DNA of 64,000 bases from a virus, in IMG/VR virus record IMGVR_UViG_2706795428_000001, positions 46,838 through 110,837 of that record. One strand, 5' to 3'. The notes beneath the pieces were generated by a model. That model worked only from the letters and a program-made list of their open reading frames with translations. It was not told the DNA's origin and did no database searches. The position numbers and the translations under genes were made by a program. This document shows positions 713 to 35,197 of the stretch, one piece after another (the first letter of the stretch is position 1; the number at the start of each line of letters is the position of its first letter).

Positions 713-953
713 TTTCTTTTTCCCAAAGAATGTTGATTGTAAATCCTAGATTCTTACAGAAAATTCTTTCCCAATCATCTGAAATTCTTTTGATTTTCCA
801 ACCAAGAAATCCCATTCCGTTGAGATGATTTCTAAAATCATGCTCAGTAGAGTCACAATCTTTGTAATATTGTTCTGCAAAATACTCGTATCGTTTATCG
901 GTCAAAGTGACGTTCTCTTTCCATACGACGAAGACAATGTAATGGAGATTCAT
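702..953 (-). CDS. hypothetical protein
   Basis: ORF in the minus-strand operon. Confidence 0.5.
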   Translation of the reverse strand: MNLHYIVFVVWKENVTLTDKRYEYFAEQYYKDCDSTEHDFRNHLNGMGFLGWKIKRISDDWERIFCKNLGFTINILWEKEIVE

Positions 954-1695
954 CTTGTTTCATGATATATCCACAACCAATCGTTCCACCTTTCCAAGAT
1001 CCTTTACGTGAACCCATTTCTTGATCAAATTCAACATCGATATTGTCTTGACGACGAACACCAAAGAATTGAATCTTTCGAAGAAAATCGCTTACTGGTG
1101 ACTTATGAGTTCCGAACCATGTCCATTTGATTTCATGACGAGTGCGAGTTACTGTTGCTTTGGCAGTTTGCAGTTCTTTCAAGCCATGTGAATAGTAAGC
1201 ATAATCATGAACTTCGGTATATCGCGGAATTTGATTACTATCAAATGGGAGAATTGAATACCAATTACCATCTTCACCAAGATACTCATACTTGGTTGTA
1301 TGATCAGCCCATGGCATTGGAGTAATTTTTGTTTTACGATTCCAATGCCAATGAATTCCTCCGAGATCATTATCCCATCTCCAAGAAAATCCATAGGTTG
1401 GTGATTCTACATGATCATAGTAATCACGAGGCTTGAATTTCAGAAATGGAAGATAGATAAACCAATGACCATAGATTGCTTGAAAATGAAGCATTGCTCC
1501 ATCATGCTCGTCAGCATATCGAAATTTACTGAAATCGAAAGTCAATCCCCATCCAGAACTCCATTCGAAATACTTTGATCTAATAAGATCTTTCTCGACA
1601 GACCAAATTCCGAGAAATTTACGGAATGGTGTGACTTTTCGTCGATCTTGTTGTTTCCATGAAGGAGAATAGGCTGTGGTTGGAGTATATTGCAT
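895..1695 (-). CDS. hypothetical phage protein (Trp-rich)
   Basis: 266-aa ORF in the operon. Confidence 0.6.
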   Translation of the reverse strand: MQYTPTTAYSPSWKQQDRRKVTPFRKFLGIWSVEKDLIRSKYFEWSSGWGLTFDFSKFRYADEHDGAMLHFQAIYGHWFIYLPFLKFKPRDYYDHVESPTYGFSWRWDNDLGGIHWHWNRKTKITPMPWADHTTKYEYLGEDGNWYSILPFDSNQIPRYTEVHDYAYYSHGLKELQTAKATVTRTRHEIKWTWFGTHKSPVSDFLRKIQFFGVRRQDNIDVEFDQEMGSRKGSWKGGTIGCGYIMKQDESPLHCLRRMERERHFDR

Positions 1696-1725: not shown

Positions 1726-2691
1726 TTAACAACCACATACTTCTTTCCTGTAGATATCCAAAAGCATAGCTTCAATGAATTGATGATCTGGTTGTTCTGG
1801 AAGTGATGAAGCTTTACCTGCTTTTTCAACTTCGATTAAGAGATCATCGATCATAACACTGATCTCTTTGAAATCTCTTTTACCAAGCTTAATTTCTAAT
1901 AGTTCTTGAGCATAAAGTAAAGGAAATTGTAGTTTGTTGCCAGAGAAATATTCGATTGCTTGTCTACCAACTCTTACAGCATGACTCATTGCTTTCCAGT
2001 CAATATTTTCATTGTTCTCCGCTTGGAGAGCACGTTGACCATATTCATCAAAGAGTTTCTGATAGACATTGATTGCTTCTTTGACTTTTGTCCCGAAAGG
2101 AACTTTCCTCCCACAGCAAGAAATATGCCAAATGATATCACCATTAGCAAGAGGAATTTTTTCGATTTCAGTATGCTCAACAAACCCGAATGTTTCCCAC
2201 TCAAGTTCTTTGAGTTTTGCGTTTGATGAATATTTCTTTTCTTGTTCTTTGAACCAATTCAGAGTGTATCGAACCGCAGCAACTCGAGACCCTTTGATGC
2301 CATATTTGTTTGCCTGTTGTTTACAGTATCCAAGATAAGGAATAATATTCTTCGAAAGATATTTGTCTCTATGTTCTCTGATGTAATCCCATAAAGGATC
2401 TTTATAGAGAAGCATTTCATCAGGAGCATCAAGAACTTCAATTGCCATGGGTTGACCTTCAGCAAGAAGTTTGAAATAGTGATGAAGACTTAGACTTTCA
2501 TAATCAGTATCTTCAGCAGTATTCTTTTGTCGATTATCTTCTTTGGTTACATTTTTGATTGCTCGTGCAGTGCACCCAAGAAGAATTTCGTTTGCATCTG
2601 GAATATGAACAGCTTTGATATCTGTATCACTATTTGGCGTGGCCGTGCCATAAAGCTGACTGCCGAATTTTAGTTCAACAAGTTTTCTCAT
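1726..2691 (-). CDS. DNA polymerase beta-superfamily nucleotidyltransferase (RlaP/YcgL-like)
   Basis: N-terminal GSQLYGTATPNSDTD motif (GS...DxD). Confidence 0.8.
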   Translation of the reverse strand: MRKLVELKFGSQLYGTATPNSDTDIKAVHIPDANEILLGCTARAIKNVTKEDNRQKNTAEDTDYESLSLHHYFKLLAEGQPMAIEVLDAPDEMLLYKDPLWDYIREHRDKYLSKNIIPYLGYCKQQANKYGIKGSRVAAVRYTLNWFKEQEKKYSSNAKLKELEWETFGFVEHTEIEKIPLANGDIIWHISCCGRKVPFGTKVKEAINVYQKLFDEYGQRALQAENNENIDWKAMSHAVRVGRQAIEYFSGNKLQFPLLYAQELLEIKLGKRDFKEISVMIDDLLIEVEKAGKASSLPEQPDHQFIEAMLLDIYRKEVCGC

Positions 2692-4700: not shown

Positions 4701-4954
4701 TTCGATACCTCATACAATTCTTCATTAACAATTTTCACAACTCTTCCAGAGTAATTTAATTTACCTTCTCTCGAAGAATATCCATCTGGAGCAAGGTAAA
4801 CATCTTTTCCGTCAATTCTTGAAACTGTTCGAACTTCGATGTAAGGAGCTCTTCCGCTCATTGCTGCTCGAAAGACTTTATCACCAGGAGCAAGTGTTCG
4901 TCGGAAAAGATCTTTACCATCATTGGCTTGATTTCGTTTCCAATCTCCACTCAT
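4697..4954 (-). CDS. hypothetical protein (SH3-like beta barrel possible)
   Basis: ORF, coupled to the kinase stop. Confidence 0.5.
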   Translation of the reverse strand: MSGDWKRNQANDGKDLFRRTLAPGDKVFRAAMSGRAPYIEVRTVSRIDGKDVYLAPDGYSSREGKLNYSGRVVKIVNEELYEVSK

Positions 4955-5496
4955 TTCAGTTTACTTCTCATAAGTTCGACAATTTTCTGAGTATCTTCTG
5001 ATGTCTCATGTTCAACTGTTTCAACATAATCCATCAAAACGAAATTTTTGCAAATGCCTGCAATTTTTGTTTCGCGACCATTGAGAAACTGTTCTGATTG
5101 ATCGTCATTACGTTTCTTATGACGAATTGAAATTGTTCTTGGGTCAGCTACTACATTCAGAATTGTAAAATCAGTATCATCAAGTTCAGCAATCCATTCG
5201 AACATGCTCTGATTTCCGATGCGATCTCCTTCAAAGAAGAAATTGACATCAGAAGCTTCTTCGATGAATTCTTTACAATGAGGTTGAGTGTTCAATCCAA
5301 GACGATCTGTCCCCGGGAACACTTCACCATCTTCATACTTGCCAATAATAACAGCATTCAACTTCTTGGAATAATGATGAGCAACATTCTTTCGAGGAAC
5401 AAGTTCCCAATCATCAGTAAGTTTCATGAACTCTTTAAAGATGGTTGATTTCCCGACAGCAGGAAGGCCGATCATTGCTACGATTGCTCTACTCAT
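4951..5496 (-). CDS. P-loop kinase of the type found in phage thymidine-hypermodification loci
   Basis: Walker A GLPAVGKST, GTDRL and FFEGDR motifs; likely start MSRAIV at 5496 (ATGA overlap). Confidence 0.75.
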   Translation of the reverse strand: MSRAIVAMIGLPAVGKSTIFKEFMKLTDDWELVPRKNVAHHYSKKLNAVIIGKYEDGEVFPGTDRLGLNTQPHCKEFIEEASDVNFFFEGDRIGNQSMFEWIAELDDTDFTILNVVADPRTISIRHKKRNDDQSEQFLNGRETKIAGICKNFVLMDYVETVEHETSEDTQKIVELMRSKLK

Positions 5497-5885
5497 AGTG
5501 CACCATATTGTGAACGTGTAGAAGGTCGAATATTTTTCAATTGAACAACAGTATGTTTCTGGGAAGTTGCAAGATTTACACCATCCCATTCAACAAGAGC
5601 CTTTTCTTCTCCTTGGAGAATGAATAGAATTTTGCCACGTTTTCCTGGAGTTGTCAGAGAATCGACGATATTATTGACTTTGAAATCATACTTGATTTCT
5701 TTTACTGGAATATTATTGTCGAAGAAAGCAACATCAGAAATACCTGCGAATTGAACGTAAGTTCGAGTTGGACCAGTAGAATACTTGCCACTTTTCTCAA
5801 TTCGAACAACTTTTGCTTCGACAACTACGATGTCACCTTCTTTTGCATCACCAACTGTGAGCTGTTTCAGACCTTGAATTGCCAT
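5493..5885 (-). CDS. hypothetical protein
   Basis: ORF in the operon. Confidence 0.55.
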   Translation of the reverse strand: MAIQGLKQLTVGDAKEGDIVVVEAKVVRIEKSGKYSTGPTRTYVQFAGISDVAFFDNNIPVKEIKYDFKVNNIVDSLTTPGKRGKILFILQGEEKALVEWDGVNLATSQKHTVVQLKNIRPSTRSQYGAL

Positions 5886-6070
5886 TACCGAATAGTCTCC
5901 AAAATTTGAAGTGTTTTTAGAATTTCTTTTTGTTCCTCTTGAAGATATTCAAGAGATAGAAGAGCATTCTCATATTGTCGTTTTAAGGTATCGATTGACA
6001 TCTTTGTATCAGTAATAACCTTTCGATTACATTCAAGTCGACCATGAAGAACTTTGGCTACTTTATCCAT
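5885..6070 (-). CDS. small coiled-coil hypothetical protein
   Basis: TAATG-coupled ORF. Confidence 0.5.
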   Translation of the reverse strand: MDKVAKVLHGRLECNRKVITDTKMSIDTLKRQYENALLSLEYLQEEQKEILKTLQILETIR

Positions 6071-6315
6071 TACCGAAATTTCTCCATAGCAGTTTCAAAT
6101 TCAACTCGTTGAGCACGAGCTTTCGCAACATCTTCAAGAAGTCCCGCAAGTTCTTTATTTTTCTTGACGAGTTCGTTGCGAAGTTCTACTTCAACTTCAT
6201 TGAGATTTCGAAGACAGTCTTCGAGGTATTGTTTAATTTTCTTTGGAAATACTCGATATTGACCAATTGTTGTAAGATTTTCTTGCATAATACTATCGTT
6301 CTCCTTGTCGAACAT
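6070..6315 (-). CDS. small coiled-coil hypothetical protein
   Basis: TAATG-coupled ORF. Confidence 0.5.
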   Translation of the reverse strand: MFDKENDSIMQENLTTIGQYRVFPKKIKQYLEDCLRNLNEVEVELRNELVKKNKELAGLLEDVAKARAQRVEFETAMEKFR

Positions 6316-6682
6316 TTTCTAATTCGATTTCATTTTTGTGATTGATTCGAATGACTTTGATTTCAGGAACCATCTTTTCGATGATCTCTTCCTGAATTGG
6401 ATCGTCTTCGAAGTGATACACTACGTCATATCCATTTCGAAGTAAATAGATAATTGTATTTGCCTTATGAATTCCTGAAGATTCTCGAGTCTTTTTGTGA
6501 AATGGAATAGGATTGAAAAATACTCGATTATGAATGCCTCTTTCATGAAGCATTTCAAGAGTTTCATCTGCTTCTTCGAAAGATCTTCCAGTGATGATGA
6601 AGTCATTTGGTCTTGGTGTGCATCCTGGTAGATCTTCTCCAAGGAAAATCACACCATCGATATCCCATGTTGCGATTTTCAT
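6293..6682 (-). CDS. capless HAD-superfamily phosphatase
   Basis: Motif I WDIDGV, motif II IITGR, motif III K, motif IV FEDD. Confidence 0.8.
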   Translation of the reverse strand: MKIATWDIDGVIFLGEDLPGCTPRPNDFIITGRSFEEADETLEMLHERGIHNRVFFNPIPFHKKTRESSGIHKANTIIYLLRNGYDVVYHFEDDPIQEEIIEKMVPEIKVIRINHKNEIELENVRQGER

Positions 6683-6799
6683 TCTGTATCTTCTTCCGAT
6701 TCAGGGTATTCTTCAATCATCTTTTCGACAATTTCACGAGGATACCAATCTCCTTTGAACCATCGGTAGTCCTCATATTCTTTTACTGGTTTGGACATT

Positions 6800-7267
6800 T
6801 TATGAACTCCAGCTGTATTCGTTTTCACCGTCTTTACTGATTCCTACATCTGGAGAAAGAAATGGAATTTTCTTGAAATTTGAAAAGACGTGTGAGAATT
6901 TTTCACCGAATGGAGTAAATCTAAACTGTTCTCCACCAGCAACCCATACATCTTCAAAAAGAACTACCCAAAGAGAATCATAAAAATTTTGCCACCAATT
7001 ATCATCTGGTTGTTCAGAAGGATCTTTACTCCATTCATAGTTATCGAAATAATCCGATTTGAAAACGATATATGCAGTCAACCCAGATTCGTTTTCAATG
7101 TAGACTCTTGTAACATTTTGGCTACAGAATCCCACGTTGAATTCATGATCAAATGTTAGAATATCATCAATTTCTGGATGATGCCAATGATGATGAATAT
7201 TATCGAACCAATAATCAATCAGTAATGGTTCGATATCGATGTTAATAAAACCTTCTGGAAATTTCAA
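6800..7267 (-). CDS. hypothetical protein (Trp/Asp/His-rich)
   Basis: ORF with SD GGAG upstream of a TTG start. Confidence 0.5.
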   Translation of the reverse strand: MKFPEGFINIDIEPLLIDYWFDNIHHHWHHPEIDDILTFDHEFNVGFCSQNVTRVYIENESGLTAYIVFKSDYFDNYEWSKDPSEQPDDNWWQNFYDSLWVVLFEDVWVAGGEQFRFTPFGEKFSHVFSNFKKIPFLSPDVGISKDGENEYSWSS

Positions 7268-7286
7268 AATTATCTCCTAATAGAGG

Positions 7287-7329
7287 GTTTCTGGTCTGTT
7301 TGCGGAAAATATGGAAACAGACCAGAAAC
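7287..7329. repeat. perfect 15-bp inverted repeat downstream of the INO1 gene
   Basis: GTTTCTGGTCTGTTT-N13-AAACAGACCAGAAAC; no U-tract on either side. Confidence 0.85.
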
Positions 7330-7370
7330 GATGCGATTCAAATCACAAAGAATTAAAGTTGTTACTAAAC

Positions 7371-8552
7371 TCAGAGAATGAATGTAGAAACAAATTTACC
7401 ATCTTCGCGTCGAACATAATCGTGAGGAATTTCACGTCGGGCTAGAATTTCACATTCTGTTCGAGCATCCTTTGTGAACATATCAACCGGAGGAGTTTTT
7501 TTCGTTGCAGCGCTGGGACCAACAATAGGACCAACAATACCAATTTCTTGAGCAACTTTCAAGAAACGGATAGCATCAATGGCGACCCCCGCAGAATTGG
7601 GACTATCAATACATGAAAGATCGGCAGTAAATTCAAAAGGCGCTCTACCAAAGATCGTCCCTTTGATAAGCCAATGAGCTCGTTTATTATCCTTTAGTGC
7701 TGGGAAATATTTTGCTGGACCTGCAGCAATTGTATTTGGTTTGGTTTCTTTACCAACCAAATCATTCTGTTTACGAATTACATTTTCTTTTGAAATTTTC
7801 TTCGAAGCTAGCCTATCAGGATTTTGCATTTGCTTGAAATCCATGTTGCCTCCAACATTATCCTGATAATGGACATCAATATCTGCTCCTCTTGCTAGGA
7901 AACATTCTTGTAGAACAGCAGAAATAATACTTGCTCCAATTGTTGAACGGACATCATCTCCAATAATAGTAACATTATTATCGGCAAATTTCTTTGCCCA
8001 TACCTTATCGGAAGCAATGAAACATGGAATACAGTTTACAACGTTTACATTTGCATTTAGACAAACATTCATCCAAAATTCTGTAGCATCTTGAGAGCCG
8101 ACAGGAAGATAGTTCATTAAAATATCGACTTGATTGTCTCGTAGATATTGAGCAAAATATTCAACATTCGCATCAACATCTTGTTCTACTGGAACAAACA
8201 TTTCTGAATCATTTACATCTGTCCCCCAAACTGGTGTATCTACACCATCAAGACGAGGACCTTGTTGAACAATAGGAAATTGTTTTTCAAGCTTAGAAAT
8301 ATTGTAAAGATCAATTGTATTATTCGGGAGTGAATGTAGAGCGACATTTAGAGGTTTACCAACTTTTCGTTGATCAACATCAAAGGCTGCAACAAATTCA
8401 ACGTTTTCAGGAGTATATCCTCCGATATTATCCATCATCAAATTCATTGTATCAAAATCAAATGCTCCTGCTTTAAATCCTTCGATACCTTGAACAAGAG
8501 CCGATGCACAATTTCCACACCCCACTAGAGCTACGCGAATTTTCTTAACCAT
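7371..8552 (-). CDS. ino1: L-myo-inositol-1-phosphate synthase (bacterial/archaeal type)
   Basis: Rossmann motif VGCGNCAS, FVAAFDVD..KVG, NYLPVGSQ.A, IIGDDVRSTIGA, GGNMDF, SKKISK, DSPNSAG. Confidence 0.9.
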   Translation of the reverse strand: MVKKIRVALVGCGNCASALVQGIEGFKAGAFDFDTMNLMMDNIGGYTPENVEFVAAFDVDQRKVGKPLNVALHSLPNNTIDLYNISKLEKQFPIVQQGPRLDGVDTPVWGTDVNDSEMFVPVEQDVDANVEYFAQYLRDNQVDILMNYLPVGSQDATEFWMNVCLNANVNVVNCIPCFIASDKVWAKKFADNNVTIIGDDVRSTIGASIISAVLQECFLARGADIDVHYQDNVGGNMDFKQMQNPDRLASKKISKENVIRKQNDLVGKETKPNTIAAGPAKYFPALKDNKRAHWLIKGTIFGRAPFEFTADLSCIDSPNSAGVAIDAIRFLKVAQEIGIVGPIVGPSAATKKTPPVDMFTKDARTECEILARREIPHDYVRREDGKFVSTFIL

Positions 8553-8645
8553 TACCTTAAAGTTCCTTTGTTATTTCAGTTGTTTCGGGAAACATTTCCC
8601 AGGCAGATTGATCCGGAATTGGAAGTAGCTGCCGAAAGAAGAAAA

Positions 8646-8674
8646 GAGTTTACCTCAAAGATTGAAGAAAGTAA
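8646..8674 (-). promoter_or_regulatory. early-type sigma70-like promoter for ino1
   Basis: Minus strand TTTACT-N17-TAAACT, followed by an ~85-nt leader with GGCAG/CTGCC and GGGAA/TTCCC stems. Confidence 0.6.
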
Positions 8675-8680
8675 ACTCTC

Positions 8681-9592
8681 CTAGAACAATTTAGAAAGAT
8701 CAGAAATCGGATCTTCAATATCTGGATGTTCCTGAAAATATTCTTTCCAAGAAACACGATCAAATGGTCGAATCTTTGAAATCGAAGTGATAGATTTCAA
8801 TTTGACTTCAGTCATTCCAGTATGCTTGACAAGTTTCGGTTCAGAGCAATACTTTCGAACGAGCTCGTCTTTTGCATAGACTTCTTCAGCAACATTCATC
8901 ATGAAAGCATTTCGATCATCTCCACCACGATCACCAGAAGATTGCATTCCTCCTGGATTCATTCCAGTGGAAGTTTTGAATCCTCCCCAATGATAGATAA
9001 CAATTCCTCCAGCTTTGTCGATGTAACGGCAAGTTCTCACAATGTCGTCCAAATGAGCAGTATAGATCTTGACAAAGTCAGGATCGTTTCTTGCACCCCA
9101 TGATCCACCAGGGAGATTGTATGGTCTGAATTCTTTCCAAGGTTTTCCTTGAAGATAGAAATCATTTTTGTAATAAGAGAATGAAAATGCTGTATTCAAT
9201 CCGAGTTCGTCAAGAGTCTTGAATCCGTCTTGAATGTATGCTTCAAGATTTGTAGATTTTGCGATGAAATTTGTTTTTGATGGAGTAGGATTGAACTCAA
9301 AAAATTCTTCAAGATCATCATCTAAAAAGAAAATTTTCTGATTGATTGGAAAGAAATCAGAAATGAAATGAACGATTTCTTTCCCGCCTTTTACTCCAAC
9401 AACAATCTCTTTATATGGATTGTCCCCCAGTGATTCTCGATATTCTTTCTTTTCTTCTTCATTCGCAACAAAGATGTAAAGCTTTTCAGAAAGATCGATA
9501 TGTTGTTTCGAGAGCATTGTGTAAGTTTTATCTCGAAACTGCATAGCTCGTTGATAAGATCTTACGGCAATAACATAATCATCAATATTCAT
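8681..9592 (-). CDS. TET/JBP-associated glycosyltransferase (TAGT/GREB1-like, GT-A fold)
   Basis: IAVRSYQRA N-terminus, FFLDDDL (DxD), C-terminal GGMQS..R; ATGA-coupled to the upstream aGPT-PPlase. Confidence 0.75.
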   Translation of the reverse strand: MNIDDYVIAVRSYQRAMQFRDKTYTMLSKQHIDLSEKLYIFVANEEEKKEYRESLGDNPYKEIVVGVKGGKEIVHFISDFFPINQKIFFLDDDLEEFFEFNPTPSKTNFIAKSTNLEAYIQDGFKTLDELGLNTAFSFSYYKNDFYLQGKPWKEFRPYNLPGGSWGARNDPDFVKIYTAHLDDIVRTCRYIDKAGGIVIYHWGGFKTSTGMNPGGMQSSGDRGGDDRNAFMMNVAEEVYAKDELVRKYCSEPKLVKHTGMTEVKLKSITSISKIRPFDRVSWKEYFQEHPDIEDPISDLSKLF

Positions 9593-10818
9593 AATACTTT
9601 GAACCATTTGTCTGTTTCTTGAAGTTCTTTTTGGAAATCAGATGATGTCGGAACAACCAATCCATCATCTTCCCAAATCTCTTTCACTTTATAATCAAAA
9701 GGATTCTCAAGTAAAGTCTCGAAACCATTTGGCATGTCTGGAAAAAGTTCATGCATATTCATAAGTTCGCCAGTGACCCCAAAGACTGAATCATACCACG
9801 AAGGAAAAACTGCACCTTTGATCAATCCTGGTTGATTTCTCAAAGCGCTTCTAAACGGCTTCCAGTCAATTTCGGGCCAATGTTCACGATAGTAAAGATA
9901 TCTTGATGTAGCATCACTCGAAGCATGCCCAGGCATTTCTCCTGAAGACCCATCAGGGGCAAACATTCGTTTGTACTGACAATAGATCGATTCTTTTCTG
10001 AATGAATCAATTCTGAAACCGGAGAATTCTTCTGCGATTGAAGTATATTCTAAAAGAGCGTCTTTAGCCCATTCAACATCTTTCTGAACAACTTGATAAT
10101 CTCCATACTTTCCAATCATCTTTTCAGGTTGATTTGTAAGAGCACAAAGACCATTCCAAATTGATCCAAGAGATGAATCGTTATTTGGAGAATATCCATC
10201 CAACATAATATCTTCTGGATCGATTGGAAGTTCAAGCAAATCATGAAGACATTGCATTAGAAGCCATCCAGTCATTCGACCGAATTTATGAAGTGTCTGA
10301 ATTTCTCTATAAAGAAGCCAGAAATTTTCTCTTTGACTTGACCCCACAAGGATTGAATCGAATTTATCTTTGAAAGAACTTTTTCCAAGCCAATTCTTGA
10401 CACTCTGAACTTGGCTAACCCAATGACCTTTGTTGTATCGAGCATCTGTTCCGTAAGTTGTTCTTTTCCAATTATTCGCATGCCATTTTTCCAATTCATT
10501 CATATTGATTGCATGAAAGTCTGGAAAGGTTTCAGTATATGCAAAAGCTTGAGGAGTTCTGTAAGTCATTCCAAAACAGAATGCAAACCATGCCTTTTGT
10601 TCAAAGTCATAATCTTTACAGAGATACTTGTAGTAATGAATATGATCCAGGTCATGCGTCAGGACTCTCCAATTGAAATATCGATTGAAAAGTTCTTGAC
10701 GTTTGCCTGGAGATTTCCATTCTTGAGTTGATTCTTCAATTCCAAAGAATCGTTTGTCCGCCTCTTGACTTGCTTTGTATTGCAGAAGCTTTTCAGAAAG
10801 TTTTGATTGTTTGGCCAT
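9589..10818 (-). CDS. aGPT-PPlase clade-2-like (amino acid:DNA transferase family) hypermodification enzyme
   Basis: AWFAFCFGMTYR, FGRMTGWLLMQCL (HhH-like) and ESIYCQYKRMF motifs. Confidence 0.75.
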   Translation of the reverse strand: MAKQSKLSEKLLQYKASQEADKRFFGIEESTQEWKSPGKRQELFNRYFNWRVLTHDLDHIHYYKYLCKDYDFEQKAWFAFCFGMTYRTPQAFAYTETFPDFHAINMNELEKWHANNWKRTTYGTDARYNKGHWVSQVQSVKNWLGKSSFKDKFDSILVGSSQRENFWLLYREIQTLHKFGRMTGWLLMQCLHDLLELPIDPEDIMLDGYSPNNDSSLGSIWNGLCALTNQPEKMIGKYGDYQVVQKDVEWAKDALLEYTSIAEEFSGFRIDSFRKESIYCQYKRMFAPDGSSGEMPGHASSDATSRYLYYREHWPEIDWKPFRSALRNQPGLIKGAVFPSWYDSVFGVTGELMNMHELFPDMPNGFETLLENPFDYKVKEIWEDDGLVVPTSSDFQKELQETDKWFKVL

Positions 10819-11125
10819 TCATTTCTCCATCAAAGTAATGCAAATACTTTTTACCTTTTGAAGATATATGCCAAGTTGTAGTATAACAATGAAAAGTTTG
10901 CCGCATTCTTTTAGAATAGAAAGTCTTTCCAGTGTAATGTTTCTTCTGGTATACATATGGTTTCATAAATCCGAGATATCCGGCAACCGAATTACGAGGA
11001 ACATTCCACCAACCAAGAAGATCTTCTAATACTTGCGAAATCTGTTTAGAAGAAAGATTTACATTTAAATGTTTAGCCGCAAGTAGAACTCTTAGAATTT
11101 GTCTTTGATTGTTATTCATTGTCAA
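10793..11125 (-). CDS. small basic protein, possible winged HTH
   Basis: Helical pattern LSSKQISQVLEDLL...RNSVAGYL then beta hairpin. Confidence 0.4.
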   Translation of the reverse strand: MTMNNNQRQILRVLLAAKHLNVNLSSKQISQVLEDLLGWWNVPRNSVAGYLGFMKPYVYQKKHYTGKTFYSKRMRQTFHCYTTTWHISSKGKKYLHYFDGEMNGQTIKTF

Positions 11126-11649
11126 TCAATTGCAGGAATTGGAGAAACAATCTTTTTAGCAGAATACTCAACTGGAACAGTGAATTGCTTTTCAAGAATT
11201 TGATATTTCGGCATTTGAGGATCTTGCCACATTGCAACAGTTGTTTTTGGAATTTTTGGGCGATCATCTTTACCAATACCACGAATTGCGTAAGTAAAAA
11301 GAACGAATGCATTCCATGCAACAGCAATCATGTGATGTGAACCGGTCTCGACATCATAGTCCTCGCCAGATTTCCATGCCTGAAGATGTCGTTCTAGAGA
11401 AGCACAACATTTTCCCCAGTCCATCCCTCTTTCCCAGTTACGGTCGGCATACTTTTTGGCGCCAATTTCGAAATGTCTACCGAGAGCCAACATTGCTTCT
11501 GGAGGAATGAGGTCCATTCGCGGTTTACCTTCATTATAACGAAGGGCTCCGTTATCTACTACAGTAGCGTTCTGATTCCTAGACATAATCACTTTATCTT
11601 CAATATCAACATCTTTTTCTTCATCATCGTAATATTTGTATGCGCTCAT
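11122..11649 (-). CDS. dATP/dGTP diphosphohydrolase domain protein (DUF5664)
   Basis: RYNEGKPRMDLIP...GAKKYADRNWERG...ASLERHL...HHMIAVAWNA. Confidence 0.85.
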   Translation of the reverse strand: MSAYKYYDDEEKDVDIEDKVIMSRNQNATVVDNGALRYNEGKPRMDLIPPEAMLALGRHFEIGAKKYADRNWERGMDWGKCCASLERHLQAWKSGEDYDVETGSHHMIAVAWNAFVLFTYAIRGIGKDDRPKIPKTTVAMWQDPQMPKYQILEKQFTVPVEYSAKKIVSPIPAID

Positions 11650-11827
11650 TTCTACCTCGTATATTTGATCATATCGTTAATTGCGATTTCCATTGAAGAT
11701 TCAGAGGATAGTGGTGAAATCCAGAAAGAGTTATCATCATTTAGACCAAAGTCATGAATGATCTTATCTCCTCTCATTCTATCAAGGAAATCCCAAGCAT
11801 CATCCAGAAATTGTTTTTCTACGATGA

Positions 11828-12070
11828 TCATGAAATAATTTCTCGTACAGTCAATTCTTTGCTGAAAAACTTTTTACGAGAGACTTTCATATAATACGTA
11901 GCATATGTATTCGCAGAATGAATTAATTCGGAATCATATACCCAAAATCGTTTTGAATGCTTCCATTTTAATTTACCTGCTGCTAATTTGACAGCATTTT
12001 CTTTTGTTTCTGCTTCAAATGTTAATGTAGCTTCCGGATAATAATCAGGAAATACTTTAAACTGCTTCAT
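11828..12070 (-). CDS. hypothetical protein
   Basis: Coupled ORF. Confidence 0.5.
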   Translation of the reverse strand: MKQFKVFPDYYPEATLTFEAETKENAVKLAAGKLKWKHSKRFWVYDSELIHSANTYATYYMKVSRKKFFSKELTVREIIS

Positions 12071-12516
12071 TCACCACACCCATTTTGTTTATCAAATTGC
12101 CCCCAATGAACAAATCCTTGAGGGCAAGCAAAACCCCATTCTCGAATTCTTGGTCCAGTCACGAAAATGGTTGTGCAAGGTTCTCGATCAGGGTATCCGA
12201 CCATTGAACCATCATTTTGTTTGACCCACTTCGTGAGAAGTTGAACACGATGCCAAGCTTCTCCGAAACGGAAATAACAATTTCCTCGTTTTCGAATGAA
12301 TTTTCCTTTTGGGGTATGTTCAATATAATTGCCTTTGATTAGAATAGAAAGGCAAAACAACCACGGATGACTATGAAGCGCTCTATCTTCATCTGAACGC
12401 AGAAACTTATGAAGATAGATGTTAAAGAAAGGATTTCGGGGAATGACCCACCACCTTAACAGGTACGGGTCTTCATTTCCTCCAATGACTACATCTGGTT
12501 TTCGTTTGAATACCAT
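12067..12516 (-). CDS. cupin-fold (cysteine-dioxygenase-like) protein
   Basis: LHSHPW...GNYIE...WHRV metal-binding pattern, TIFVTGP..REWGF; TGATG-coupled to the TET/JBP gene. Confidence 0.7.
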   Translation of the reverse strand: MVFKRKPDVVIGGNEDPYLLRWWVIPRNPFFNIYLHKFLRSDEDRALHSHPWLFCLSILIKGNYIEHTPKGKFIRKRGNCYFRFGEAWHRVQLLTKWVKQNDGSMVGYPDREPCTTIFVTGPRIREWGFACPQGFVHWGQFDKQNGCGE

Positions 12517-13844
12517 CAGAACAACGTAGCTCCTGTTTGAGGGTATGCTTCTGGATGATATTGAAGAACGACATCTTTTCCAAGTTTTGATTCTAGGTAA
12601 TCATACCATGCTTGTTCAGTAAACATTCCTGGCGTGACGCCATTGAACAAATTTCGCCCTTCCGAAAGAATTGGATCTTTCTTTCGTTCTTCTACATACT
12701 GAAATTTTACTTGATTGTATTCGTAAGAACCGGTTCCAATCAAATCTTCACGGAAATACGCAACAACACTACAACGATTTCCAATGATTGGAGTATTTCC
12801 GTGAATGATATTATGATTTGCAATCAGAAGAAGATCACCAGGACGAATATTAACGCATGCTCGATATTCTGGAAATACTAGATATCCGCCTTCAAAATCT
12901 GATTCACCATCAGTCAGTACTGAAAGATTGGAAAATCCTGCTTCCAGATCACCATCATCCAAATGGTATCCAGTGCGGAAATTTTTGTTCACAGTAATTG
13001 TGCTGAATACTGTTCCGGGAACAACGAATTCAGGAGCAACTTTCTTACATGCTTCATTTTGATTATTCCATCGTTTTGGAAGGAACTCTTTGAAAGCATT
13101 AGAAAGTTTCTGAAGATACGGAAAAGCTTGTTCAAACTCTTCAGGGTTATTTCGATTGAATGCTGCAAGACGAGCATAAGGGTATCGTGGATAAGGTGGT
13201 TGCGAACCGGCAACTCCAGAGTTCACAGGAGAAGCATAAGTCGAGATTGAAATATATTTTTTCTCTACAAATTCTGCTTCTTTCTTGCGTTCTTCTACAG
13301 AAAGTTTCCGTACTCTTTCCAACCATTCAGAGAATTTGAAATTATCATTTCGAGTTGCATGATACAGCCACATGCATCCTCTTGAACTGTTTTTGTCGCC
13401 ATCTTTGTATTTCTCAAAGATTTCTTCGATTGGATCAAATCCTGGAAGAGGTTGAGCACCTTTTTTGAATAGATTGATAATATCCCATTCTTTTGCAGTA
13501 ACCCAATCTCTATTGCCGACTTTTTCGACTTTTGGTCCTGCAGCCAAGCCACGATTATTTGAAGGGACATCGGCTGCGCGATTTAATCCTCGATATGCGC
13601 CAAGTTGTTCTTCTTTTGTGAAGTAATTTTTCCTGAAAACCAAACCAATTCTTGCTTCATCAATCGCTTGGGGACATGACGCACAATCTTGATTACATTC
13701 AAGCATATCTGAAACAAAGCAATCAGGCTTCGTATAGAAATTGGTATCAGAATCAATAATCACATCATAATGCGAATCTTCCGCAAACTGCCCCAGAAGA
13801 TGCTGACAATCAATCTTTTCTTTAGCAACAATAACATTAACCAT
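12516..13844 (-). CDS. TET/JBP-family 2OG-Fe(II) dioxygenase
   Basis: TITVNKNFRTGYHLD (HxD), GGYLVFPEY, IHGNTPI (distal His), RCSVVAYFRE (2OG-binding Arg). Confidence 0.85.
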   Translation of the reverse strand: MVNVIVAKEKIDCQHLLGQFAEDSHYDVIIDSDTNFYTKPDCFVSDMLECNQDCASCPQAIDEARIGLVFRKNYFTKEEQLGAYRGLNRAADVPSNNRGLAAGPKVEKVGNRDWVTAKEWDIINLFKKGAQPLPGFDPIEEIFEKYKDGDKNSSRGCMWLYHATRNDNFKFSEWLERVRKLSVEERKKEAEFVEKKYISISTYASPVNSGVAGSQPPYPRYPYARLAAFNRNNPEEFEQAFPYLQKLSNAFKEFLPKRWNNQNEACKKVAPEFVVPGTVFSTITVNKNFRTGYHLDDGDLEAGFSNLSVLTDGESDFEGGYLVFPEYRACVNIRPGDLLLIANHNIIHGNTPIIGNRCSVVAYFREDLIGTGSYEYNQVKFQYVEERKKDPILSEGRNLFNGVTPGMFTEQAWYDYLESKLGKDVVLQYHPEAYPQTGATLF

Positions 13845-14298: not shown

Positions 14299-14608
14299 TG
14301 TTGACGCTAGTATTTTGGTTTAGATGCAAAATTTCTCGTAATCTTTTTTCAAGAAACTCATATTCATTTCGTTCAGAGCAATATGAATAAAGAGCAAAAG
14401 CCCATGGATCTTTTTCGAACATTTTCTCAAGACTTTCACGGGTATGTTTCTCGTTTTTCTTAAACCAGTAATCAGTTTTGTTTCTACCAATATTCAGTTT
14501 AATGTTTTCTTCTTGCCTTTTCTTTCGCCATTTTTCAATTTGGTCTAGTCTTTTAGAAATAAGATCGGCGGCGAAAGAGCACGGAAGATTATACCAAACT
14601 CTTGTCAT
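14267..14608 (-). CDS. hypothetical protein
   Basis: ATGA-coupled ORF. Confidence 0.5.
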   Translation of the reverse strand: MTRVWYNLPCSFAADLISKRLDQIEKWRKKRQEENIKLNIGRNKTDYWFKKNEKHTRESLEKMFEKDPWAFALYSYCSERNEYEFLEKRLREILHLNQNTSVNIEFTRDYNVD

Positions 14609-15075
14609 GAAATTGGATCCTGGGTCACCAAAACCATTTCAATATCAGGCTTGAAGTAATTTGGCCCTTTCAGAACTTTGCCATCTTCACGATATACTGG
14701 TTTACCATCTTCACCAAGTTTGCTCATGTTCGAAGAGTGAACTTCTGAAAACACTGAATCAAGATTGATACCATATTCTACAGCAGTACCATGGTTGAAA
14801 TATTCAATATCTGCTAGAGCATCAGCGATTTCAACAATATCTGGAGCACGAACACGATCTAGGATTGATGCGACTTTCCATGCAGCCTGAATTAAATGAA
14901 TACCGGCAGGATTGTAACCCTGAGCATCTAAAAGTTCACAGAACTCTTCGATAATGAAACCATTGCGAAGATTTTCTCGTTGTACTGAAAGATTGTTTGG
15001 ATTAGGAATAGTTCCGATTGGTTGATTGTAAGTCTGATGAAACTGAAGAACTTTTTCAAAATTTGTCTTTGCCAT
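14605..15075 (-). CDS. MazG-like (all-alpha) NTP pyrophosphohydrolase
   Basis: IEEFCEL...EIADALADIEY...VHSSNMSK...GKVLKGPNY; likely start MAKTN at 15075. Confidence 0.85.
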   Translation of the reverse strand: MAKTNFEKVLQFHQTYNQPIGTIPNPNNLSVQRENLRNGFIIEEFCELLDAQGYNPAGIHLIQAAWKVASILDRVRAPDIVEIADALADIEYFNHGTAVEYGINLDSVFSEVHSSNMSKLGEDGKPVYREDGKVLKGPNYFKPDIEMVLVTQDPIS

Positions 15076-15076
15076 T

Positions 15077-15496
15077 TTAATTCTTTCCCACAACATATTT
15101 GTGAATAATTTGGAATTCTTTTTTCTCTTTCGAGGGGACAACCTTGATTGAAGAAATTGGAGCAAGGTCTTTGAATACTTCTGTATTCTTGACAGTGACA
15201 AGACCCCATTCATTTAGAAGCCATGCAATTGTATTTCGACGTTTACGATCTTCTTCACTGAAAGAAGTCGGTTTGCGGTCAAGCATGAAACATTCTTTAA
15301 AATGGAGTAGCCAATAACGACCACGCTTGAAAAGAATAACACATGAAGGATAAAGAGTCTTTGGGGTTGTTTTTGAAGAACTAATTCCAATTCGTTCAAG
15401 CGTTTCCTTGACGATTAGGAAATCTTCGGGTTTAGAGAGTTCAATTTCGATAAATGATTCTAATAGTTCTTCAACTGATTTATTTTGATTTGTCAT
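15077..15496 (-). CDS. regA: translational repressor RegA
   Basis: DFLIVKETLERIGI...LYPSCVILFKRGRYWLLHFKE; T4 synteny after gp62. Confidence 0.92.
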   Translation of the reverse strand: MTNQNKSVEELLESFIEIELSKPEDFLIVKETLERIGISSSKTTPKTLYPSCVILFKRGRYWLLHFKECFMLDRKPTSFSEEDRKRRNTIAWLLNEWGLVTVKNTEVFKDLAPISSIKVVPSKEKKEFQIIHKYVVGKN

Positions 15497-20284: not shown

Positions 20285-20797
20285 TTACTTCATTCTTTTC
20301 TTAACCTTCGCGATACGTTTCTTGAGTAATTGACCTTTAAGGCCAGTAGTTTTATCGATCATTGTAATACCATTCAAATGATCAATTTCATGTTGAATAA
20401 CTCTTGCAGTAAAATCTTCAAATTTCTTTGTAACGACATTACCATTTGGTTCGGTATAACGAACTTTAATTCGTCGAGGTCTTTCAACTTCTGTGAAAAT
20501 TCCCGGAAAACTTACACAACCTTCTTCCAATGTAATCAGAGTTTCATAAGATGCATCAATGATTTTTGGATTGAACATGACAATGACAGGATTAGATTGA
20601 ATCGCAATGACTTGAAGATTAATACCAATTTGAGGAGCAGCTAATCCAATTGCCTTCTCAGTAATCATCTTTGCTGAAAGAAATCGAGCAAATTCGATTG
20701 GATCACAAGGTGAATTATGAAAATCAAATTTTTGAGAAGGAGTATGAATTGACTCTGGATCGAATTCTACTTTGTCCAGAAGAGTTTTACCAAACAT
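20285..20797 (-). CDS. def: peptide deformylase
   Basis: GLAAPQIG, EGCVS and QHEIDHL signature motifs. Confidence 0.93.
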   Translation of the reverse strand: MFGKTLLDKVEFDPESIHTPSQKFDFHNSPCDPIEFARFLSAKMITEKAIGLAAPQIGINLQVIAIQSNPVIVMFNPKIIDASYETLITLEEGCVSFPGIFTEVERPRRIKVRYTEPNGNVVTKKFEDFTARVIQHEIDHLNGITMIDKTTGLKGQLLKKRIAKVKKRMK

Positions 20798-25085: not shown

Positions 25086-25934
25086 ATGGATCAATATTCT
25101 GTGAAAGGGATCAATAGAATGCTAACTTTTCATGAAGCTGCAATTTCTTATGTTGAACATGGAGGAGAAGAACGATACCTTCGAAAACTCATCGAACATT
25201 TTGGAAATCAAGATGTTTCAAAGATCACTCCAATGGCTGTCAGGAATTCAGTGAAAATCATCTTTCCGAATTCTTCTCCGGCAACTCACAATCGTCAAGT
25301 CATCACTCCAATGAGAGCAGTCTTGTATCATGCCCATGAAATGGGTTGGAGAATGCCTGCAAAAATCAAATCATTCTACGCTCCGAAAACCAAATTGACA
25401 ATTCCTGCAAATCGAAAATGGTTAGAAACTTTCATTGATCAATGCGACAAAGATGAATTACCTCATTTGGCAGCTTGCGTTCTTTTCATGAATCTTACCG
25501 GAGCAAGAGTTTCAGAGGCTGTTAATTTTCTTGGAAAGCATATCAACTTAAGAGAACGTAAAGCAATTCTTATTAAAACAAAAACCGATTTCAATAGTAT
25601 TCGGTATCTCCCTGATCACTTGGTCGAACGATTAAGAGATTTGAACATTGGCCCCGAGGATCGTGCTTTCAAATACAAATGTCGTTTCAGCGTCAATGAA
25701 AGAATTGGAGCAGTTTGTAATCGGGCCGGAATTCAATACAAATCATCTCATACTGTTGGAAGACATTCTTTCGCGACAAATGCTTTGAATGCTGGAGTCA
25801 GTGTTCGAGTCGCAATGGATGCCGGTGGTTGGAAATCTTCTTCAATCTTTCTTGAAACATATTCGCATAGTATGGATGCTGGTAAAAGAGTCGCAGATAT
25901 TTTCAATCTTATTCATCAAAAAGATCAAGAATGA
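25086..25934 (+). CDS. tyrosine recombinase (XerC-like, no arm-binding domain)
   Basis: TGARVSE (R), KTK (K), HTVGRH (HxxR-type), GGWKS (W), TYSH (Y). Confidence 0.92.
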   Translation: MDQYSVKGINRMLTFHEAAISYVEHGGEERYLRKLIEHFGNQDVSKITPMAVRNSVKIIFPNSSPATHNRQVITPMRAVLYHAHEMGWRMPAKIKSFYAPKTKLTIPANRKWLETFIDQCDKDELPHLAACVLFMNLTGARVSEAVNFLGKHINLRERKAILIKTKTDFNSIRYLPDHLVERLRDLNIGPEDRAFKYKCRFSVNERIGAVCNRAGIQYKSSHTVGRHSFATNALNAGVSVRVAMDAGGWKSSSIFLETYSHSMDAGKRVADIFNLIHQKDQE

Positions 25935-25983: not shown

Positions 25984-27504
25984 TCACCAGGTCGAGACGT
26001 TACCCATACGCGCCCCGCGATCCGGCCAGCAGTCGCGCAGGTAAATCGCCGAGCCAGAACCGGATGTCATGTAGGCGTAGGAGCCAGGTGACATTTGCGG
26101 CGTCCGCACACGGAAGAGGAAGAACTGTGCGTCGTCGTCAGCCCGAAACGCGGTCGGGGGCGTCGTCCCTGCAAACCGGCGGTCACCTCGGTCGTGCGCC
26201 ATCGTGCCTGCGAAAATGCCCTTGGACGAGTCGATCGAGCGCACGCAGCCGCCACCCGAATCTCGATAGTCGCCCGCATAGTCGGCGGTGATGACGTCCT
26301 CATGACCAGTGTGGGCGTTGGCCGAGAGGGGGTTGGAAAGGCCAGCAGCGTTCACCGTGACGCCGTTTTTTCGGCCGACGCAATTCACGAACAGCGCGCG
26401 AGTTTTGACGCCCAGTCCGAGCTGCCAGCGCTGATTATGGATGTTCTGGTGGTCCGTTTTGGACCTGCCGAAAAAGCAATCTTCAAACCACGCGAGGCCG
26501 TGAAGCGCATCAACAGTGACCGCTCGGCCCGTCCCCGTGGTCAAAAAGCCGTATCCATGGAACCGAACACCCCTCACCGCCACGCAACGCGGCGTCACGT
26601 TTGTATCACTGGTCGGGACCACATAATCAAAAGGCCCGTTGCCGCCCCCGCCGCCCTCCAAGATCATCACGTCGCCAGAGGTGGCTGGCCCCATACCGAT
26701 CGAGATGTTCTTGCCGGCGTGGAAGTTCCGAACACGCTGGATTACGCGCGTGTTTGCGATAGTGACCGCAGAATTGTCGGCGCGACGCACGAGGGTGGTG
26801 GTTCCGTCCGTCGTCCAGCACCCAGGCGGGATGTCACCGCTGGCAACCCACGGGACATACTGGAACGGCGTCAACATGCCGTCCTCATCCACGTTGAGGC
26901 GGTCGAGGGCGTTGTCTGCCGTTGTCACCGCGCAAGCGTAAGTAAAGCTTGCGCCAGTGTGTAGCGACGGGGTTGAGAAATCAACGTGAGAGCCGACGAT
27001 CAGCAGCCCGCCATAGAACTCAAACCATATATCGACCGTGGGGTCGTAGGTCGTGCTCGATGAGCCGTTCGCGAAGTTCTTGCTCTTAGGTAGCTCGATG
27101 CTCGCGCCCTGTCCACCCTTGATGCGGATTTTTGCGGGCTGACCTGTCGCGTTGGCGGCCAGGATCGCCTTCCCGATGGTCTGCCAAGCCGTGCCCTCGG
27201 TCAGCCCGTTGCCCGTCGTGTCGTTTCCACTGGTCGGATCAACCACGAACGTGTTGACAGGAGCCGAGCGGGCTGTAGAGAATAGATCGAAAATCTGCTC
27301 GGCCGTGTAGTTGCAATGGGCATAAGCTCGACTGTCAGACCCCTTGTCTTCCAGTCTGCCCAAGAAATCATTCGGCAGAAAAAACTCAGAGCGTGGAATT
27401 GAACTCGGAAAAGGGATGTCGATCAGCGCTTGCCCTGGTGTAGCCAGGCCATTGACGGCATCGCGAAGTTCGCCGCCGTTGTAGGTTGTGCCGAGCAGGG
27501 TCAT
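25984..27504 (-). CDS. GC-rich, horizontally acquired right-handed beta-helix (pectin-lyase-like, tailspike/depolymerase-like) protein
   Basis: FVVDPTSGNDTTGNGLT...AWQTIGKAI N-terminal motif and beta-helix-like repeats; GC ~60% by eye against an AT-rich background. Confidence 0.6.
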   Translation of the reverse strand: MTLLGTTYNGGELRDAVNGLATPGQALIDIPFPSSIPRSEFFLPNDFLGRLEDKGSDSRAYAHCNYTAEQIFDLFSTARSAPVNTFVVDPTSGNDTTGNGLTEGTAWQTIGKAILAANATGQPAKIRIKGGQGASIELPKSKNFANGSSSTTYDPTVDIWFEFYGGLLIVGSHVDFSTPSLHTGASFTYACAVTTADNALDRLNVDEDGMLTPFQYVPWVASGDIPPGCWTTDGTTTLVRRADNSAVTIANTRVIQRVRNFHAGKNISIGMGPATSGDVMILEGGGGGNGPFDYVVPTSDTNVTPRCVAVRGVRFHGYGFLTTGTGRAVTVDALHGLAWFEDCFFGRSKTDHQNIHNQRWQLGLGVKTRALFVNCVGRKNGVTVNAAGLSNPLSANAHTGHEDVITADYAGDYRDSGGGCVRSIDSSKGIFAGTMAHDRGDRRFAGTTPPTAFRADDDAQFFLFRVRTPQMSPGSYAYMTSGSGSAIYLRDCWPDRGARMGNVSTW

Positions 27505-35120: not shown

Positions 35121-35197
35121 GGTCGCATAGCTCAACTGGAGAGAGCACAAGCCTTCTAAGCTTGGGGTTGTAGGTTCGAGTCCTACTGCGATCGCCA
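35121..35197 (+). tRNA. tRNA-Arg(TCT)
   Basis: GGTCGCA/TGCGATC acceptor, anticodon arm CAAGC-CTTCTAA-GCTTG, GTTCGAGT T-loop, CCA. Confidence 0.95.

Follow-up and report, generated by a model that had tools for sequence, protein, structure and literature searches.

Known thymidine hypermodifications and the locus under study

The hypermodifications known from phage DNA carry sugars, amino acids, polyamines or deazapurine side groups. The subject of this report is an operon located in a stretch of viral DNA of 64,000 nucleotides (called here the window), which covers positions 46,838 to 110,837 of IMG/VR virus record IMGVR_UViG_2706795428_000001, a record of 155,997 bp that is 97% complete. In this operon a gene for myo-inositol-1-phosphate (inositol-3-phosphate) synthase, INO1, is situated among genes of DNA-modifying enzymes, and it is considered fairly probable that the operon, which is of the TET/kinase/AADT kind, serves to hypermodify thymidine after replication and brings its own supply of the attached group, namely inositol placed by the AADT enzyme.

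In described thymidine hypermodification, 5-hydroxymethyluracil (5hmU) in DNA is phosphorylated by a P-loop kinase, after which an AADT expels the phosphate via a cysteine adduct and a nucleophile adds to the C5 methylene (PMC8989533). A precedent for an oxygen nucleophile is provided by gp247 of phage ViI, which uses the hydroxyl of serine and forms an ether (Lee et al. 2021, PMC8989533); one glutamate and one cysteine are essential in both M6 gp51 and ViI gp247 (PMC8989533). Oxidation of T in DNA has likewise been reported for phage TET/JBP enzymes that occur in linkage with AADTs and P-loop kinases (O'Toole et al. 2026, PMC13229309), and the word "inositol" is absent from the main text of that publication. 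In phage TET-TAGT systems, 5-methylcytosine is produced by a C5-methyltransferase and the resulting 5-hydroxymethylcytosine (5hmC) is then glycosylated (Burke et al. 2021, PMC8256090; bioRxiv 10.1101/2023.12.21.572611).

The window system shares with the ViI 5-NeOmdU pathway a P-loop kinase and a clade-2 AADT with the essential Glu/Cys pair, and it is predicted to share an oxygen nucleophile, an ether at the thymidine C5 methyl and post-replicative action on polymer DNA. The source of 5hmU is different, being a dUMP hydroxymethylase in ViI and, by prediction, TET/JBP acting on T in DNA here. The nucleophile is a free amino acid in ViI, whereas in the window it would be a cyclitol made by the products of two phage genes. 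The pyridoxal phosphate-dependent decarboxylase of the ViI pathway is missing from the window system, which adds a phosphatase and, in some related clusters, a glycosyltransferase. Clusters of 5mYOX clades C1/C2 (PMC13229309) are similar in having TET/JBP without a C5-methyltransferase and a co-located P-loop kinase, AADT and glycosyltransferase, but the window genome differs by having no ParB. Like the TET-TAGT systems, the locus encodes TET/JBP and a TAGT-like glycosyltransferase of the GT-A type within a single operon; it differs in that a methyltransferase is lacking while an AADT, a kinase and the inositol cassette are present. What is new in comparison to the TET/kinase/AADT kind is the phage-encoded cyclitol supply, a divergent and dedicated AADT subfamily and the phosphatase.

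In bacterial inositol conjugates, such as mycothiol and phosphatidylinositol, inositol-3-phosphate is conjugated first and dephosphorylated afterwards. These pathways (mycothiol with MshA/MshA2, phosphatidylinositol via PIP synthase and a phosphatase) resemble the window system in the pairing of an Ino1 homologue with a phosphatase. In contrast to them, the predicted acceptor in the window is a DNA base, a capless HAD protein of 129 aa takes the place of an IMPase-fold phosphatase, and genes of the lipid or thiol pathways are not present.

Linkage of INO1 to DNA-modification genes

The modification genes of the window are tightly packed, all on the minus strand, downstream of regA, and include six enzymes with intact catalytic motifs: TET/JBP, AADT, a TAGT-like glycosyltransferase, INO1, the capless HAD and a P-loop kinase. 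An earlier note on this DNA (the original prediction) had placed AADT at 9589-10818, the TAGT-like gene at 8681-9592, INO1 at 7371-8552 and the HAD gene at 6293-6682, and all four were found there on the minus strand. The coupling that it claimed for AADT and TAGT is also real, the stop codon of the former and the start of the latter overlapping as ATGA at 9592. The HAD gene does follow INO1 on the same strand, although not as its direct neighbour, for two open reading frames (ORFs) of 155 aa (6800-7267) and 39 aa (6679-6798) intervene. The unit of 6293-10818 was drawn too short: its genes stand, but the functional unit reaches the P-loop kinase (4951-5496) on one side and TET/JBP (12516-13844) on the other.

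A single-sequence search of viral contigs with INO1 returned one locus only, and an alignment query was used instead. This revealed INO1 relatives in 269 IMG/VR contigs, 80 of which were fetched and supplemented with 8 further loci; their ORFs were profiled with hidden Markov models built for this analysis, and dereplication of INO1 at 90% identity left 54 viral clusters. All but one of these (53/54) lie inside a DNA-hypermodification cluster, where INO1 is as a rule an immediate neighbour of the modification genes and shares their strand. Half of them (27/54) show the arrangement of the window, TET-AADT-INO1-HAD-kinase (type A), while 16 are INO1-HAD-(FkbM methyltransferase)-HMUDK clusters (type B) and nine have the order FolE-INO1-HAD-QueC-DpdA-QueE, as in Stenotrophomonas phage Moby (type C). 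The remaining two comprise one mixed cluster and one unlinked lineage (L080/L084), in which no modification gene was detected nearby. Types A, B and C are interleaved in a maximum-likelihood INO1 tree, whose well-supported branches require a minimum of 9, 7 and 5 changes. The association therefore does not go back to one inherited arrangement, and the cassette has recombined repeatedly with DNA-modification genes.

The reverse survey, made with the AADT subfamily, gave 72 loci, of which 62 were new, with identities of 21-65%. INO1 stands directly downstream of AADT in 61 of these 62 relatives, and the one contig without it breaks off at AADT. Roughly a hundred viral contigs besides the window place inositol genes within a thymine-modification set. 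The clusters occupy varied genomic positions, by topoisomerase, by gp45/44 or by UvsX/gp41. The linkage of INO1 to DNA-modification genes is beyond chance and strongly non-random; absence of such linkage had been named in advance as a finding that would speak against the inositol proposal, and the opposite was observed in both surveys.

Other features of the surveyed loci deserve mention. Type B clusters often contain a divergent thymidylate-synthase-like gene (70 bits in L023) and a C5-methyltransferase-like gene. An example is L023 (5601-12881), in which, as in L006, L007 and many other type B loci, MazG, a thymidylate-synthase-like protein, dCMP deaminase, INO1, HAD and HMUDK are encoded; clusters of the L023 type additionally have a 366-aa protein of unassigned function and a C5-methyltransferase-like protein. 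Both type A and type B clusters frequently include a methyltransferase of the FkbM type (Methyltransf_21), which could have the cyclitol as its O-methylation substrate. Type C loci are L002 (Moby, MN095772.1; 8207-13621), L017, L019, L027, L038, L039, L065, L075 and L081. The PF18724 profile missed Ralstonia phage RP13, yet the subfamily AADT profile hits its ORF118 (E 1e-111; BLASTP 1e-10), therefore negative profile results for Moby and RP13 should not be taken as evidence of absence. Some INO1 sequences that bear a cellular label (Dyadobacter, an unnamed bacterium and Hexamita inflata; P0118, P0120, P0119, P0050) nest among viral ones in the tree, which suggests either that genes have passed between phages and cells or that the assemblies contain viral DNA. 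In L114 (IMGVR_UViG_3300001605_000047) INO1 appears as three consecutive ORF matches between AADT and HAD; the gene may be split or interrupted, or sequencing frameshifts may be responsible.

Enzymes of the operon

The INO1 protein (7371-8552, minus strand; PF01658, 4.4e-21) matches Mycobacterium tuberculosis Ino1 (PDB 1GR0) with E 1.6e-76 over residues 4-368, that is at full length, and phrog_33138 with 8.7e-243; it is 47-48% identical to cellular inositol-3-phosphate synthases. The synthase motifs GxGNCAS, LPVGS, FIASD, GDDxRS, NVGGNxDF, SKKISK and DSPNSAG are kept. The one departure of note, an Arg in place of the Lys of GDDxKS, was rejected as a sign of lost function, the same change being common to cellular proteins annotated as myo-inositol-phosphate synthases. 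The score is 261 bits against M. tuberculosis Ino1 and 125 bits against Ari2 (6K96), a five-membered cyclitol-phosphate synthase in which the FIASD and DSPNSAG motifs are altered, whereas the window protein retains both. From these comparisons inositol is predicted as the likeliest product of INO1.

The AADT (9589-10818, minus strand; aGPT-Pplase clade 2 type) is recognised by PF18724 with 179.3 bits against a cut-off of 26.2 (E 1.3e-52). Its Glu/Cys pair, E276 and C280, is invariant in 19 INO1-linked AADTs and aligns with the E-x-S-x-x-C stretch of the ViI-type AADT from Kuttervirus Guerrero. The enzyme is only about 21-27% identical to ViI-type enzymes and belongs to a separate, INO1-linked subfamily. 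A P-loop kinase homologue accompanies AADT in the window and in nearly all related clusters. It is proposed that the AADT puts inositol or inositol-phosphate on phosphorylated 5hmU.

The TET/JBP-family 2-oxoglutarate/Fe(II) 5-methylpyrimidine dioxygenase (12516-13844, minus strand) matches PF12851 with 74.3 bits against a cut-off of 34.9 (E 8.4e-21), and its iron triad H294-x-D296...H348 is conserved in 54 unique homologues. Neither a C5 DNA methyltransferase (PF00145) nor ParB was found in the 97%-complete genome, which encodes a canonical ThyA, and on these grounds T is the likely substrate of TET. The enzyme is thus likely to turn T in DNA into 5hmU, as far as can be predicted from gene content. 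The P-loop kinase (4951-5496, minus strand) is 29-32% identical to the PF18751-annotated kinases of loci L008 and L010 (E 1e-21 to 1e-25). Its ORF is listed from 5589; the conserved start, however, is M32 at 5496, and both M32 and the Walker A residues G41-x4-G46-K47 are conserved in 53 homologues. A role as 5hmU DNA kinase is proposed.

The capless HAD phosphatase (6293-6682, minus strand) has no Pfam match; it matches PHROG 415 (polynucleotide kinase, phosphatase part) with 1.2e-14. All four HAD motifs are recognisable, namely D7xD9G (I), T31-G32-R33 (II), K73 (III) and E92-D93-D94 (IV); among 26 homologues D7, D9, G10, G32, R33 and K73 are invariant, and T31, E92, D93 and D94 occur in at least 90%. 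The AlphaFold2 model (pLDDT 92.3) shows alternating strands and helices within 129 aa, a Rossmann-like core without a cap domain. The best structural matches in the PDB are the 3'-phosphatase domain of T4 Pnkp and Pnkp1 (TMq 0.61-0.67, probability 1.00), with a Foldseek E-value of only about 2e-3, and a sequence search of the PDB returned noise only. The small HAD accompanies INO1 in 42 of the 54 dereplicated clusters. In four of the five lineages without it that were checked (L008/9, L035, L078/L104 and L043/L118) an NT5C-like HAD stands beside AADT or INO1; in the fifth, L070/L094, none was seen. These NT5C-like proteins are unrelated to the small HAD, have a DxD motif and comprise 174-192 aa (L008 7103-7681; L035 1482-2006; L078 7433-7978; L043 5360-5878). 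They look like a non-orthologous replacement, and since they fill in where the small HAD is absent, a phosphatase appears near-constant in the pathway. From this replacement and the constant pairing with INO1 we infer that the HAD substrate is an inositol-phosphate, either free or DNA-bound.

The glycosyltransferase (8681-9607, or 8681-9592 from an alternative start; minus strand) scores 19.7 bits against Pfam TAGT (PF20691; E 8.5e-4), below the cut-off of 27.5, and is for this reason named TAGT-like. It matches PHROG 842 with 4.7e-8, and in the ESM Atlas it reaches a feature score of 0.98 and a TM of 0.86 to PF20691 TAGT clusters, which have the GT-A fold. The DDD (DxD) motif D96-D97-D98 is conserved in 9 TAGT-like homologues. 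The gene is present in only a minority of TET-AADT-INO1-HAD-kinase clusters. A general role of TAGT in inositol transfer was rejected on account of its absence from most type A clusters; the TAGT-like enzyme is an optional add-on and not the inositol transferase.

Proposed pathway and rival explanations

The chemical steps given below, the identity of the base as 5hmU and the sequence in which transfer and dephosphorylation take place are all predicted from gene identities, intact catalytic motifs and conserved linkage. TET/JBP would oxidise thymine in phage DNA to 5hmU, and the P-loop kinase would phosphorylate its hydroxymethyl group. Meanwhile INO1 would convert glucose-6-phosphate of the host into inositol-3-phosphate. 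The dedicated AADT would then expel the phosphate by means of its Cys/Glu active site, and inositol-phosphate or free inositol would add to the C5 methylene through one of its hydroxyls, producing an ether-linked inositol-thymine. The small capless HAD would remove the inositol phosphate, either on DNA after attachment or beforehand, giving free inositol, and in the clusters that have it the TAGT-like enzyme probably attaches a sugar, either to the inositol or to 5hmU that was left over. That INO1 and HAD supply the nucleophile is the simplest reading because they are the only unusual elements of the operon. As to the order of events, the evidence leans towards transfer of inositol-3-phosphate first and its dephosphorylation on DNA afterwards, since the HAD is capless and most like a polynucleotide 3'-phosphatase and other bacterial inositol conjugates are built in this manner.

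The original prediction had named inositol or inositol-P as the moiety, placed on 5hmU or 5hmC by the aGPT-PPlase or via an activated donor and TAGT. Gene context, on which the covalent attachment of inositol to DNA is suggested here, agrees with the moiety and favours the AADT route, while the TAGT route falls with the lack of this gene in most type A clusters. Of the two bases 5hmU is favoured, for there is no C5-methyltransferase and the machinery published for thymidine consists of AADT together with P-loop kinases (PMC8989533, PMC13229309); 5hmC was rejected as the modified base in a genome without a C5-methyltransferase. The prediction knew of no described inositol-DNA base, and none was found in the literature searched, where inositol together with phage DNA hypermodification gave only incidental mentions (structural similarity of glycosyltransferases to MshA and PimA).

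Several points weigh against the pathway as proposed. The INO1 family also holds makers of other cyclitols, for example 6K96; the match of the window kinase itself to PF18751 (Ploopntkinase3-type) is weak (0.003); and the HAD gene lies two ORFs from INO1 and four ORFs from the kinase, with function-unassigned ORFs between. No recognised transferase was found in type B clusters. In the nine type C clusters neither a kinase nor an AADT was detected, consequently AADT cannot be the universal attachment enzyme, and the role of the cassette may be more indirect. Moreover, no measurement of the DNA of any carrier phage was found in the literature searched. With these points in mind, a cyclitol may be thought to reach DNA in a form other than plain myo-inositol placed by AADT: as a different cyclitol phosphate, as inositol O-methylated by FkbM or glycosylated by TAGT, or through another protein of the cluster acting as the transferase. 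Such a course is held to be unlikely. It agrees with the presence of Ari2-type five-membered cyclitol synthases in the INO1 family, with the Methyltransf_21 (FkbM-type) gene inside many type A and B clusters, with types B and C having no AADT and with the unassigned ORFs of 155, 110, 130 and 81 aa in the window operon. On the other hand, the window INO1 is far nearer to M. tuberculosis Ino1 than to Ari2 in score and in its FIASD and DSPNSAG motifs, there is no methyltransferase in the window cluster, and the adjacency of AADT and INO1 is near-absolute in the subfamily.

It might also be supposed that INO1 and HAD form an auxiliary metabolic module whose product is not put on DNA at all but acts as a sink for glucose-6-phosphate, as an osmolyte, as a precursor of lipids or of the envelope or as a small-molecule effector directed against a host defence, their placement being explained by the accessory-gene region of T4-like genomes. 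The L080/L084 lineage, without a detected modification gene near INO1, would fit such a module, and so would the Menderavirus cassette, which lies in a 7-deazaguanine cluster with no evident route of inositol attachment. Nevertheless the module is regarded as quite improbable: INO1 is inside modification clusters in 53 of 54 cases, usually adjacent and on the same strand, these clusters are found at different genomic positions (topoisomerase, gp45/44, UvsX/gp41), and the whole AADT subfamily exists only next to INO1. It would also leave AADT without a dedicated substrate gene, though ordinary amino acids need none. Very improbable, finally, is a modification of 5-hydroxymethylcytosine in which inositol comes from an activated donor and TAGT is the principal transferase. 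TAGT family members are indeed known from TET/5hmC systems (PMC8256090), and some type B relatives carry C5-methyltransferase-like and divergent thymidylate-synthase-like genes; however, the window's own genome has no PF00145 methyltransferase, its cluster has no cytidylyl- or nucleotidyl-transferase to activate inositol, and most type A clusters are without TAGT.

Transfer of inositol or inositol-phosphate to phosphorylated 5hmU by AADT is thus preferred for the window, and a broader proposition may be added to it. There is about an even chance that a cyclitol-bearing base, for example 5-(inosityl-O-methyl)uracil with or without phosphate, methyl or hexose, represents a widespread and so far undescribed class of hypermodification, in which INO1-HAD acts as a portable donor for at least three base-activation chemistries (TET with kinase and AADT; a thymidylate-synthase-like hydroxymethylase with HMUDK; and 7-deazaguanine DpdA/QueC). 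If this is true, cyclitols would be a new chemical class on DNA, and the modification would be environmentally common, as INO1 is present in at least 269 IMG/VR contigs, many of which belong to T4-like phages of marine and freshwater origin. Probable consequences are a block to restriction enzymes and an influence on the sequencing and enzymatic handling of such DNA. AADTs would also prove able to accept a polyol, a property of use in functionalising DNA with enzymes. Some carriers have been cultured, namely Menderavirus phages of Stenotrophomonas and Ralstonia phage RP13, which makes the claim directly testable. Among the Stenotrophomonas carriers in culture are phages Moby, IME-SM1, YB07 and Ps15.

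Layout of the locus and neighbouring genes

The minus strand of the window, which stems from an uncultured T4-like phage, carries a T4-like replication module with the gp45 clamp, the gp44/62 clamp loader and regA. Identity of gp44 to its nearest cultured relatives is only about 45%, and a megablast comparison of window positions 6000-11700 with cultured phages gave no match. A scan for promoters and terminators remained near the level of shuffled sequence (39 against 31.8 expected), and transcription units were not defined by it.

All further genes of the modification region are on the minus strand. An NTP pyrophosphohydrolase of the MazG/PRA-PH type (14605-15213; PF01503, 9.7e-13) precedes TET; in many surveyed loci a MazG gene lies upstream of TET-AADT-INO1, and it often heads such clusters. 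Directly after the TET gene comes a small viral cupin-fold protein (12067-12516; phrog_4786, 3.2e-55, labelled "cysteine dioxygenase"), whose Atlas structure matches Cupin_2 clusters with a TM of 0.61-0.67 and which could be an accessory protein of TET. A protein with the N-domain of dATP/dGTP-diphosphohydrolase, a nucleotide pyrophosphatase (11122-11649; PF18909, 5.1e-34), is kept in the same cluster in L010, L057, L125, L127 and the P0003 contig. The 155-aa ORF between INO1 and HAD matches phrog_25544 (1.4e-66), has neither a Pfam match nor a usable Atlas match and occurs in only three loci, the window included. The 39-aa ORF was read from the sequence, and its stop codon overlaps the HAD start as ATGA. 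Three small ORFs of the ORF list (6070-6315, 5885-6070 and 5493-5885) fill the space between HAD and the kinase; function-unassigned ORFs of the operon measure 155, 110, 130 and 81 aa.

A few kb downstream of the modification operon an anti-defence gene is found, a homologue of the CBASS inhibitor Acb3 (895-1695, minus strand; PF25187, E 1.8e-68), and the window also encodes an RlaP-type nucleotidyltransferase (1726-2691, minus strand; PF10127). A 506-aa ORF (25984-27504, minus strand) has about 60% GC in a genome of 36% GC and no Pfam match; inspection by eye suggests a beta-helix, tail-fibre-like protein. It adjoins a tyrosine recombinase (25086-25934, plus strand; PF00589, 3.3e-15), and together they could represent a recent acquisition or an assembly chimera. 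A peptide deformylase (20285-20797, minus strand; PF01327) and a single tRNA-Arg(TCT) (35121-35197, plus strand) are likewise encoded in the window.

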